Shown piece by piece: positions 35,083-37,299 of a stretch of DNA of 64,000 nucleotides. The stretch is from Acutalibacteraceae bacterium (lineage in GTDB: Bacteria > Bacillota > Clostridia > Oscillospirales > Acutalibacteraceae). The notes below the pieces were generated by a model. That model ran no database searches. It was not told where the DNA came from and worked only from the letters and a program-made list of their open reading frames with translations. The translations under genes were made by a program, and so were the position numbers. Every line of letters begins with the position of its first letter. Position 1 is the stretch's first letter. Where the stretch lies: the NCBI GenBank assembly GCA_045544115.1, contig JAZPYI010000045.1:26850-90849 (forward strand), written 5' to 3'.

Positions 35083-35913
35083 TTAAAAGAAATTCCTTCT
35101 CCAATGGAACAGATATTGCTGTGCGATACCCCTTGCACCGTTTGTGCATTCGGGGAGTCCGTCGGGATAAAGCTCGCTCATAATGCGTTTCACCCACACA
35201 TCAACGGGGAATGCGTCAATCTTTCCGAAGCCGTAGAGAAGTGAGCATTGCGCAACCTTCTCGCCAACCCCCTTGATTTTTATCAGCTCATCCCTGCCCT
35301 CATCAATGGTGAGGGCATAAATTTTTTCAATGTCGATTTCGCCGTTTGCAACCTTTTCGGCGGCATCAATTATATATTTTGCTCTGAAGCCCGCTCTTAT
35401 CGGTGCAAGCGCTTCAACACCCGCCTCAGCAATTTTTGCGGCGGAGGGGAAGGAATAGTCATCATCACCCAAAGGCTCACCCAGAAGTCGGCAAAGGCGG
35501 TCTATGATACCTTTTATTCGGGGAATATTGTTGTTCTGCGAAATGATGAACGAACATATTGCCTCCCACGGCTCCTGACGCAGAAGCCTTATTCCGTAGC
35601 AGGTATCAACTGCCTCAGCAAGACATTTATCTGCCATAAACTTACGGCAAAGTATGCCGTAGTCACGTTCAAGGTCAAAATATGTAATCCAGATGTTTTC
35701 AAAATCCTCTTTATTCGTTCCGATAAACTCAATTCCCCGCTCGGTTTTCTTAAGAGTAAGCGGTTTTGAATATGCGACTCCGTGCCATTCATTCTCCCCT
35801 GTCTGCACCCAGCGGAATGCCTGACCGCAATCGAGGGTCAAAGCCAAATCAAAACAGTCGGCGGTGAGAATTATTTTGTTTTCTTCAATTGTATATGTAT
35901 TTTTTACAGCCAT
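35083..35913 (-). CDS. ogg: 8-oxoguanine DNA glycosylase (HhH-GPD, Ogg-like)
   Basis: TLDCGQAFRW, FIISQNNNIPRI, GVGEKVA, FPVDVW; ggag RBS before ATG 35913. Confidence 0.85.
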   Translation of the reverse strand: MAVKNTYTIEENKIILTADCFDLALTLDCGQAFRWVQTGENEWHGVAYSKPLTLKKTERGIEFIGTNKEDFENIWITYFDLERDYGILCRKFMADKCLAEAVDTCYGIRLLRQEPWEAICSFIISQNNNIPRIKGIIDRLCRLLGEPLGDDDYSFPSAAKIAEAGVEALAPIRAGFRAKYIIDAAEKVANGEIDIEKIYALTIDEGRDELIKIKGVGEKVAQCSLLYGFGKIDAFPVDVWVKRIMSELYPDGLPECTNGARGIAQQYLFHWRRNFF

Positions 35914-36041
35914 TTTGTTTTTCTCCAAACTGTAATATTATGTATTTTTTGCGAAAAATATTGCCATAATTTCATCGACAATTTGCAACATTTTGTAAAG
36001 TTTGTACAACCTTTTGTATATTCCAATTTAGAATTAAAAAG

Positions 36042-36153
36042 TTTTCCACACTCAAATTCGGTGAAAAATAAGGACTTTTTCACTTGGTTATACATCTTTT
36101 CCACACAGTTATCCACATTTTTAGTGGAAAAGTCGGTTATACAGATTGTATAA
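36042..36153. promoter_or_regulatory. DnaA-box cluster
   Basis: Three TTWTNCACA matches (36042, 36097, 36109) plus four 1-mismatch boxes in about 110 bp. Confidence 0.75.
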
Positions 36154-36218
36154 CAAGCATTACAAACAGCATGAATATATCACCTTTTCTCTGCCAAAAA
36201 TAACATAGAACTTCCGCA

Positions 36219-36509
36219 GTGAAAGGAGAACTCGAGTTGATAAAAGGGGTCAACAGACAGGTTGTTGAAATCACACAGACTCAATGCGAATATTTTGAAA
36301 GGGTGCTGTTTTTCATAAAACCCGAATACTCGGCAGTCAGTGAGGGTGATTTAAGAGAAAGGGCGAGTGAAATTGCGCAGAGTGCAGGTATGCCGCCCGC
36401 TGCAAGGCTGAGGAAAAGCAGAATACGACTCGCCTTAAGCATGAGTGCCGCTGCCTGCGCAGGAGCATCAATCAGCGGAATTATTTTTTTGCTGACTTCA
36501 TTTTTTTGA
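36219..36509 (+). CDS. hypothetical protein with C-terminal TM helix
   Basis: 96-aa ORF with hydrophobic C-terminus; overlaps 3' end of nth. Confidence 0.65.
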   Translation: MKGELELIKGVNRQVVEITQTQCEYFERVLFFIKPEYSAVSEGDLRERASEIAQSAGMPPAARLRKSRIRLALSMSAAACAGASISGIIFLLTSFF

Positions 36510-37130
36510 GTAGTGGTCGCAAAAGCTGTTCATAACGCAGCTTTCGCACTTCGGTCTGCCTGAAATACAGGTTTCTCTGCCGTGAAGAACGCAGCGGTGG
36601 CAAAAATCGTTGCTTTCTTCAGGCGTAAGAATTTCACGAAGCTGCATTTCAACCTTAAACGGGTCCTTTGTCGAAACAAGACCAAGCAAATTGGAAATTC
36701 TTATAAGATGAGTATCGGCAACTACAGCAGGCTGACCGTAAACATCACCCATGATGAGATTGGCGGTTTTTCTGCCGACACCCGGCAAAGAAGTGAGCTT
36801 TTCAAGGGTATCGGGAACCTCACCGTCAAACTCCGCTATCATCTTACGGCACATTTCAACGATATCCTTTGCCTTTGCTCTGAAAAATCCGCAGGAATGT
36901 ATAATTTTCTCAACATCAGATATTTCTGCATTCGCAAAATCTTCAACAGTTTTATATTTTTCAAAAAGAGCAGGTGTAACAAGATTCACTCTGGCATCGG
37001 TGCATTGAGCCGAAAGCCTTGTTGCAATAATAAGCTGCAGGGGATTTTCGGCATTGAGCGAACAAATTGAATCGGGATATTTTTCCTTGAGCGCATTAAC
37101 TGCGAGCAGGGCTTTTTCTTTTTTATTCAT
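36498..37130 (-). CDS. nth: endonuclease III
   Basis: LSAQCTD..VN, LPGVGRKTAN, DTH, C-x6-C-x2-C-x5-C Fe-S motif. Confidence 0.95.
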   Translation of the reverse strand: MNKKEKALLAVNALKEKYPDSICSLNAENPLQLIIATRLSAQCTDARVNLVTPALFEKYKTVEDFANAEISDVEKIIHSCGFFRAKAKDIVEMCRKMIAEFDGEVPDTLEKLTSLPGVGRKTANLIMGDVYGQPAVVADTHLIRISNLLGLVSTKDPFKVEMQLREILTPEESNDFCHRCVLHGRETCISGRPKCESCVMNSFCDHYSKK

Positions 37131-37299
37131 AATGTTCTCCATTTAAAATAATATACTCTAATTATATATCAACATCCTTCGTTTTTGAAGATTAAATTTA
37201 AAATTAATATGAATTTTTATTTTTACCACATAAAAACAGTTGATTTTAAATCACTTTCATGTTAACATAATAATAACTATAAAATGGGAGGATACCCTT

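Follow-up and report, generated by a model that had tools for sequence, protein, structure and literature searches.

A conserved array of DnaA boxes upstream of a small sporulation-associated membrane protein gene: a candidate non-origin DnaA target in Oscillospirales

Background

In both Bacillus and Escherichia coli, DnaA is established as a transcription factor at clusters of its binding sites that lie outside the origin of replication. The non-origin clusters of Bacillus subtilis (ywlC, yydA, gcp-ydiF, trmE-jag and ywcI-vpr) are intergenic, contain four to eight boxes and are stably bound by DnaA; ywlC and yydA are repressed by it, and expression of sda depends on the five DnaA boxes that precede its promoter, coupling replication status to sporulation (PMC2533591). 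Collectively, the non-origin clusters of B. subtilis delay initiation (PMC3245932). Here we analyse an array of putative DnaA boxes in an Acutalibacteraceae bacterium, located between ogg, the gene for an 8-oxoguanine DNA glycosylase, and a divergently transcribed small gene, on a stretch of 64,000 nucleotides (hereafter the window; C45:26850-90849, on contig JAZPYI010000045.1 of assembly GCA_045544115.1). The genome, G000, is a 2.58-Mb draft in 93 contigs with a GC content of 41%, and positions given without a contig refer to the window.

An earlier, sequence-only reading of the window had proposed that the cluster either titrates DnaA or places ogg and the small gene under DnaA control. By comparing the locus with those of its relatives, we arrive at a narrower account, in which the array is probably a non-origin DnaA-binding region that controls the promoter of the small gene (36237-36509), the latter encoding a sporulation-associated membrane protein of 90 amino acids; control of the small gene is the part of the proposal that comparison favours, and control of ogg is less well supported. 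Searching the literature, we found no published account of non-origin DnaA regulation in Oscillospirales (the gut and rumen Clostridia that include the Ruminococcus and Acutalibacter relatives), nor any description of the small-gene family or of this box cluster.

Results

A statistically exceptional box array

Scanning with the DnaA-box consensus TTWTNCACA and allowing at most one mismatch, we found seven boxes, three of them perfect, in about 105 bp (36042-36145), a site-by-site recovery of the dense cluster that the sequence-only reading had described. From left to right, a perfect TTTTCCACA on the plus strand (36042-36050) is followed by two sites with one mismatch each, TTTTTCACC on the minus strand (36060-36068) and TTTTTCACT on the plus strand (36076-36084), and then by two perfect plus-strand boxes, TTTTCCACA (36097-36105) and TTATCCACA (36109-36117). 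These last two form a tandem direct pair, TTTTCCACA-cag-TTATCCACA (36097-36117, plus strand), spaced 12 bp from start to start, which is the most conserved part of the array. An inverted box on the minus strand, TTTTCCACT (36123-36131, one mismatch), lies where GTGGAAAAG is conserved in the genus alignment, and the final box, TTATACAGA (36137-36145, plus strand, one mismatch), makes up the left half of a palindrome, TTATACAGATTGTATAA.

Seven perfect sites occur in the 64-kb window, against 7.19 expected from shuffled sequences, and three of the seven fall within 76 bp at the array. When 150-bp windows were scored across the whole genome, with 2 points for a perfect box and 1 point for a one-mismatch box, the array reached a score of 10, joint first with a cluster at C82:82029-82126 and ahead of the next clusters with 8, 7 and 7; the maxima of 20 genomes simulated from a third-order Markov model were 6-8, all below 10. 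The box array is real and statistically exceptional, far above chance, and it is the highest-scoring non-origin cluster of the genome. Its predominant 9-mer, TTTTCCACA, is the same as that of the C82 cluster, which lies between recR and dnaN, in G000 and in relatives, and the same protein would therefore be expected to bind at both sites. The AT-rich tract that had been noted beside the boxes holds in a moderate sense: the intergenic region is 69% AT, with a maximum of 87% in 30 bp, but its longest pure A/T run is just 9 bp. Compared with Rfam, the intergenic region gave no match of note.

Conservation of the array with the small gene

We examined two sets of loci, 18 from the same genus and 80 further Oscillospirales loci from public genomes (50-87% protein identity). 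The array is found upstream of the small gene in 18/18 same-genus loci, in whose alignment the tandem pair, in the form TTTTCCACA-N3-TT(A/T)TCCACA, is nearly invariant; this pair recurs in the 80 wider loci, and relatives also carry a distal box about 46-55 bp upstream of it, the counterpart of the box at 36042-36050. Counted over the 350 bp that precede the small gene, the 80 wider loci hold 185 perfect boxes in 27.8 kb (6.66/kb), compared with 88 perfect boxes in 545 kb of flanking sequence from the same loci (0.16/kb), which amounts to a 42-fold upstream enrichment. At least one perfect box is present in 70/80 of these upstream regions and at least two in 60/80, so the check on conservation in relatives that the sequence-only reading had proposed came out in favour of a maintained cluster.

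The number, orientation and spacing of the boxes vary by clade, from 12-bp tandem pairs to pairs 30 bp apart accompanied by an inverted distal box. Since the cluster is kept despite this turnover of individual sites, we would argue that selection acts on binding, rather than that the sequence has simply been inherited. The arrangement in which ogg and the small gene diverge from the boxes between them is seen in 61/80 loci, with ogg and nth (endonuclease III) both adjacent in 50/80, and boxes are kept without ogg or nth adjacent in L067, L090, L093 and L095.

The array and the gene are also lost together. In five same-genus genomes that lack the small gene, nth lies right beside ogg, in tandem (nth->ogg) and with some 60-130 bp between them; of the dense array, no more than one or two TTATTCACA sites are left. 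The five loci, L140-L144 (genomes G006, G016, G009, G018 and G008), constitute one clade (support 100/99) that is nested among gene-bearing lineages in the tree, which points to one secondary loss of gene and array. This clade also has no SASP genes, and looks like a lineage that gave up sporulation.

A small protein with a predicted tail anchor

The 96 amino acids previously assigned to the small gene correspond to its longest open reading frame, which begins at a GTG. All relatives start at MIKGVN, 8 nt downstream of a ribosome-binding site (here AAAGGAG, 36222-36228), and from this common start we place the true start at TTG 36237 and the product at 90 amino acids (36237-36509, plus strand). 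The protein had no match in Pfam or NCBIfam. Its family numbers 476 cluster representatives at E<=1e-3; the members that have a source name come from Acutalibacteraceae, Oscillospiraceae and Ruminococcaceae-type genomes and are called 'hypothetical protein', save one evident mis-annotation. Conservation is high over the N-terminal 50 residues (MIKGVNRQVVEV..CEYFER..FFVKPEY..SEG.LRERA), after which come a PPP-basic linker and a hydrophobic helix at the C-terminus. In an AlphaFold2 model with a mean pLDDT of 76, the chain folds into a beta-hairpin, a helix and a transmembrane (TM) helix at residues 62-89, an arrangement that suggests a membrane protein anchored by its tail, with a small domain in the cytoplasm. 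A Foldseek comparison of this model with the PDB returned nothing below E=3.5. The sole profile match among PDB sequences, a designed coiled coil aligned to residues 37-86 (the helix and the C-terminal TM segment), was judged irrelevant.

A candidate forespore-type promoter and further elements

The B. subtilis forespore consensus consists of a -35 element G-n-A-T-A/G, a spacer of 17-18 bp and a -10 element C/x-A-n-n-n-T-A. That of C. difficile is reported as very similar (PMC3789822). Upstream of the small gene we find a candidate forespore-type (sigmaF/sigmaG-like) promoter, P2 (36173-36202, plus strand), with the -35 element GAATA (36173-36177), an 18-bp spacer and the -10 element AAAAATA (36196-36202), the latter matching six of the seven positions of the forespore consensus. 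The corresponding motif, G[ACT]ATA-N17/18-[ACT]A[ACT][AT][ACT]TA, is present at -120 to -45 in 88/98 loci, mostly at about -62 from the start codon, and even in loci without boxes. Within G000, motifs of the P2 type also precede a spoIIQ-like gene (TM segment plus Peptidase_M23; GAATA-N18- with a near-identical GCCAAAAATA -10 region), a gerA-family gene and spoVAC (GAATA-N17-GATAATA), and a loose form of the pattern matches upstream of housekeeping genes as well. Readings of this conserved proximal element as a sigmaH or an ordinary sigma-70 promoter were dropped, as neither the spacing nor the hexamers agree with them. All seven boxes fall 28-130 bp upstream of the predicted P2 -35 element, without overlapping P2 and inside the roughly 200 bp in which boxes would be looked for at a DnaA-regulated promoter of the sda, ywlC or yydA type.

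A second predicted promoter, the sigma-70-like P0 (TTGTAA-18-TATATT, 35993-36022, plus strand), was found by consensus scan, is conserved in the genus only and fires into the array, the boxes of which begin about 20 bp downstream of its -10 hexamer. A sigma-70-like site lies upstream of the boxes in 26/88 loci, so P0 is not general in the family. The palindrome TTATACAGATTGTATAA (36137-36153), whose right half reads as a -10-like TATAAC/TATAAT, recurs across clades in the form TATACA-N4/5-GTATAA, between the array and the proximal promoter; a dimeric regulator might bind it, or it could consist of two weak DnaA boxes set head to head, or serve as a -10 element. Further upstream, a Spo0A-box-like heptamer, TGTCGAT (35974-35980, minus strand), agrees with TGTCGAA at 6/7 positions and is a weak lead, lying where the genus alignment keeps a TCGACA block; the upstream regions of the gene family show a 4.9-fold enrichment in perfect TGTCGAA, yet just 12/80 loci have one, a signal that is real but weak. 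Together, the palindrome and the Spo0A-box-like motif suggest that further regulatory inputs may converge on this region.

A probable link to sporulation

G000 is the genome of a spore-former, encoding SpoIIE, SASP, GPR, SpoVA and GerA. Across the genus genomes, the small gene and SASP genes occur together in 16, the small gene alone in 2, SASP alone in 0 and neither in 7. Promoter type and phylogenetic profile in this way tie an uncharacterised, highly conserved small membrane protein to sporulation. As an observation on the SASP genes themselves, two of them (C90:1900-2035 and C51 ~2260-2400, one of which is cut short) have nearly identical sequences over about 130 bp upstream, which indicates a recent duplication or an assembly repeat.

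The probable origin lies beside dnaN

As had been claimed, neither dnaA nor dnaN is in the window: dnaA lies on C13 (C13:73334-74689; L005:5334-6689), where yidC-rnpA diverges from dnaA-ftsY-rdgB, and dnaN lies on C82. The dnaA product is complete, with its N-terminal domain, ATPase and domain IV helix-turn-helix. The genome-wide scan showed no box cluster in the surroundings of dnaA (the rpmH/rnpA-dnaA region), and GC skew keeps a positive sign throughout, over more than 70 kb in each direction. The cluster that shares the top score with the array occupies the interval between dnaX-ybaB-recR and dnaN-recF-remA-like, where boxes (TTTTCCACT, TTTTCCACA twice and TTATCCACA), a GC cluster, CTACTACTACTACTA and a 32-bp pure A/T run (100% AT in 30 bp) follow one another. 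CTA repeats represent 3'-GAT-5' DnaA-trios, which, when placed beside a DnaA box, are the hallmark of the basal unwinding system of bacterial origins, the criterion being trio repeats (5'-CTA-3') within 16 bp of a box (PMC8287927). A run of four or more CTA units occurs once in the 2.58-Mb genome, as (CTA)5 at C82:82197, in the recR-dnaN interval. Upstream of dnaN in same-genus genomes, boxes are present in 4/5 and a CTA/TAG run in 3/5, as well as in the further relative SVS042. On the strength of the boxes, the trio run and the A/T tract, in a layout that recurs in the genus, we place the probable oriC of G000 at recR-dnaN, C82:82016-82320 (L003:5016-5320).

At the array, no CTA or TAG run of two or more units was found in 35914-36236, and there is no AT-rich unwinding element. 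Nor does a skew minimum or a gene-orientation switch occur there: on C45 the skew never rises above zero to the left or right of the array and traces no V at 62.9 kb, and the genes run in both directions, so that the GC-skew check proposed by the sequence-only reading revealed no inversion. The array and the recR-dnaN cluster are on different contigs and at least 41 kb apart (reckoned from the distance of each to its nearest contig end). Judged by these sequence features, the array is neither an origin nor half of a compact bipartite origin, a verdict that had been reached earlier from the orientation of rplK-L and that the missing trios, unwinding element and skew inversion place on firmer grounds.

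The weak skew of G000 does not coincide with recR-dnaN either. In the near-complete relative G041, a weak skew turns from negative to positive at 1.0-1.08 Mb, matching neither dnaA (0.85 Mb) nor dnaN (1.39 Mb), which are 542 kb apart on its 1.7-Mb scaffold 1. Such detachment of dnaA from dnaN and boxes is unusual for Firmicutes, and the canonical dnaA-dnaN pair is kept in other Oscillospirales (G033, L095). In two clades of differing gene order the array is close to the origin. L039-L041 and L054 have the order ogg-boxes-small-nth-x-dnaX-ybaB-recR-oriC-dnaN, which puts the array about 5 kb from oriC, and in L095 (a goat-rumen Clostridia metagenome-assembled genome, JAFTCX010000048.1, 1-4270) dnaN<-oriC<-dnaA is followed by nth-orf172-boxes-small, which leaves about 1.5 kb between the array and the dnaA start and about 3 kb between it and dnaN; the origin here is dnaA-[boxes+TAGTAG]-dnaN. 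This proximity is compatible with regulation, with titration, or with early forespore expression of origin-proximal genes.

Two further features were seen in the genome-wide scans. The sharpest GC-skew minimum is at C82 ~28-36 kb (L004), about 50 kb left of recR-dnaN and with no DnaA boxes nearby; at this point, which is flanked by a class-V aminotransferase gene and an ftsW/PBP operon, gene orientation switches cleanly from 27 genes on the minus strand to about 50 on the plus strand. The minimum could reflect a recent rearrangement, a mis-join in a metagenome-assembled genome, or transcription-driven skew. The third-best box cluster (score 8) is at C18:59168-59308 (L006:4169-4309), between mutS2 and the ylxM-ffh operon, and is directly followed by a near-consensus TTGACA-N17-TATAAT promoter and then by a short hairpin plus T-run, a possible small RNA or leader.

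Flanking genes

The genes around the array are those that had been read from the sequence, namely ogg, the small open reading frame and nth, with profile matches for ogg and nth. The divergent neighbour ogg (35083-35913, minus strand) matches Pfam OGG_N (1.4e-25) and HhH-GPD, with a TIGR00588 subfamily match below the cut-off; its start was taken as ATG 35913, preceded by a GGAG ribosome-binding site, and the position of this start is conserved in the genus alignment. Beside the ribosome-binding site is a conserved -10-like element, TAATAT. On the other side, nth (36498-37142, minus strand; TIGR01083, 222.6 bits against a cut-off of 211.7; HhH-GPD) is convergent with the small gene and overlaps its 3' end. 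A terminator-like hairpin with a T-run (36472-36505), situated within the last codons of the small gene and overlapping the 3' end of nth, may act as a bidirectional terminator. To the left of ogg are genes for homoserine dehydrogenase and aspartokinase; to the right of nth are those for a 691-aa protein (no Pfam match, and a weak delta-60 repeat match only) and a LURP-one-related protein, followed by purL.

Discussion

In the account that we favour, DnaA would bind the array and thereby set the level of transcription of the small gene, so that a sporulation-associated gene would be tied to the replication-initiation state of the cell; some DnaA would incidentally be sequestered by the array as well. 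We infer DnaA binding, the sign of its effect, the sigma factor acting at P2 and the role of the protein from comparison of sequences. As for the sign, we lean tentatively towards activation, since the boxes lie upstream of the one universal promoter element of the family, as they do at B. subtilis sda. Repression, or a roadblock to transcription arriving from upstream, seems to us a less likely alternative across the family, although in this genus it is equally conceivable that the array acts as a roadblock to transcription from P0.

Several observations weigh against DnaA control of a forespore promoter. Because the boxes do not overlap P2, simple occlusion is not to be assumed, and the sign of control is to that extent a guess. 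Small gene and P2 are present without a perfect box in 10/80 loci, and the distant homologues in G033, G034 and G040 are likewise without one, from which it follows that DnaA control would not be obligatory for the family. The putative assignment of P2 to sigmaF/G draws on motif resemblance, and here the known forespore genes of G000 agree imperfectly: the SASP promoter has the -10 element AACAATA but a weaker -35 element, TAATA, and gpr shows no clear match to the motif. The co-occurrence of the small gene with SASP yields a Fisher p of 7.5e-5 that overstates its weight, the losses amounting in the tree to about one event, given that at least five of the seven genomes without both (those with a traceable ogg) belong to one clade. 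Finally, a cluster of this strength must titrate DnaA with or without regulation, and the two roles are neither mutually exclusive nor separable by sequence.

The last point raises the question of whether titration is all that the array does. In that case it would be a pure DnaA reservoir of the datA or B. subtilis cluster type, delaying re-initiation, with its position next to the small gene incidental. It is the strongest non-origin cluster of the genome, it is only 3-5 kb from oriC/dnaN in the two clades described above, and clusters near oriC are common (PMC2533591); moreover, deletion of six non-origin clusters in B. subtilis leads to early initiation (PMC3245932). A reservoir would nevertheless hardly be expected to disappear along with the small gene from a clade that still needs to control initiation, nor to stay upstream of a conserved promoter through rearrangements, including far from the origin, as in G000, and we consider it rather unlikely as a complete explanation. 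More doubtful still is the idea that the boxes mainly regulate ogg, and possibly nth too, linking base-excision repair to replication while the small gene is a bystander. DnaA boxes are known at repair and replication genes of E. coli, the boxes lie between ogg and the small gene in the 61/80 loci with divergent order, and one or two TTATTCACA boxes persist between nth and ogg in L140, L142 and L143, which have no small gene. However, some 100 bp or more separate the ogg -10-like TAATAT from the first strong box, boxes are kept without an adjacent ogg in L067, L071, L072, L080, L090, L093 and L095, whereas L099 and L102 have an adjacent ogg and no boxes, and the dense cluster is gone from the clade that keeps nth-ogg without the small gene.

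It could also be asked whether a factor other than DnaA binds the 9-mers, or whether they have no function and are repeats that merely resemble DnaA boxes. The palindrome TTATACAGATTGTATAA and the Spo0A-box-like motif indicate that other regulators are probably acting here, but the dominant 9-mer is shared with the trio-bearing origin in G000 and relatives, the 42-fold enrichment over 80 genomes persists despite site turnover, and the genome encodes a complete DnaA including the domain IV helix-turn-helix; we regard this explanation as very unlikely. Least credible of all is that the array serves as the chromosomal origin, or as half of a bipartite origin, detached from dnaA. Its box density equals that of the dnaN-linked cluster, dnaA itself is without boxes and sits in uniformly positive skew, and the array is 2-5 kb from dnaA/dnaN in two clades. 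Set against this, it has neither a trio run nor an A/T tract longer than 9 bp, where recR-dnaN has (CTA)5 followed by a 32-bp A/T tract; C45 has no skew minimum or orientation switch, the two clusters of G000 are on separate contigs, and a whole clade dispenses with the array.

Under the favoured account of small-gene control by DnaA, the array is a conserved, specific and testable candidate DnaA target in Oscillospirales, and, if the link holds, it would show a coupling of chromosome replication to spore formation in this order. A more far-reaching version, which we offer as improbable speculation, is that the 90-aa protein is a replication-sporulation checkpoint factor: its forespore expression from sigmaF/G would be boosted by active DnaA through the upstream array, its conserved cytoplasmic N-terminal domain would feed back, at the membrane, on DnaA or the initiation machinery, and the resulting loop would block re-initiation in the developing spore. 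Were this true, the protein would be the functional counterpart of Sda/SirA in Oscillospirales; no Sda/SirA equivalent turned up in the lineage, with no search aimed at homologues made. Independently of the array, the likely location of the genus origin beside dnaN, with dnaA hundreds of kilobases away, matters for origin prediction keyed to dnaA and for replication-based estimates of growth rate from metagenomes.

Among known systems, the closest parallel is sda itself (yqeG-sda), where, as here, about five or more boxes are found upstream of the promoter of a very small gene tied to sporulation, and where the cluster is conserved with the gene across relatives. Sda is a soluble 46-aa inhibitor of KinA. 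The protein described here is unrelated to it, being a tail-anchored protein of 90 amino acids that belongs to no detectable family, and its promoter looks forespore-type (sigmaF/G-like) rather than vegetative, in Oscillospirales rather than Bacillaceae; regulation has been shown at sda and is predicted from sequence at the array. With the other B. subtilis clusters and with E. coli datA, the array shares dense intergenic boxes outside oriC, although the neighbouring genes differ; datA, for its part, requires IHF. Its tandem, same-orientation boxes of the origin sequence type are reminiscent of the basal unwinding system of oriC, but it has neither the 3'-GAT-5' trios nor the AT-rich tract of that system (PMC8287927), both of which are present at recR-dnaN. 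There is, lastly, a likeness to the autoregulatory region of dnaA in Firmicutes (rpmH-dnaA), in which boxes are placed between or after a sigma-70-type promoter and the gene, P0 reading through the array being a possible case of such a roadblock; the gene concerned here is, however, not dnaA, and the rpmH/rnpA-dnaA region of G000 is itself without a box cluster.

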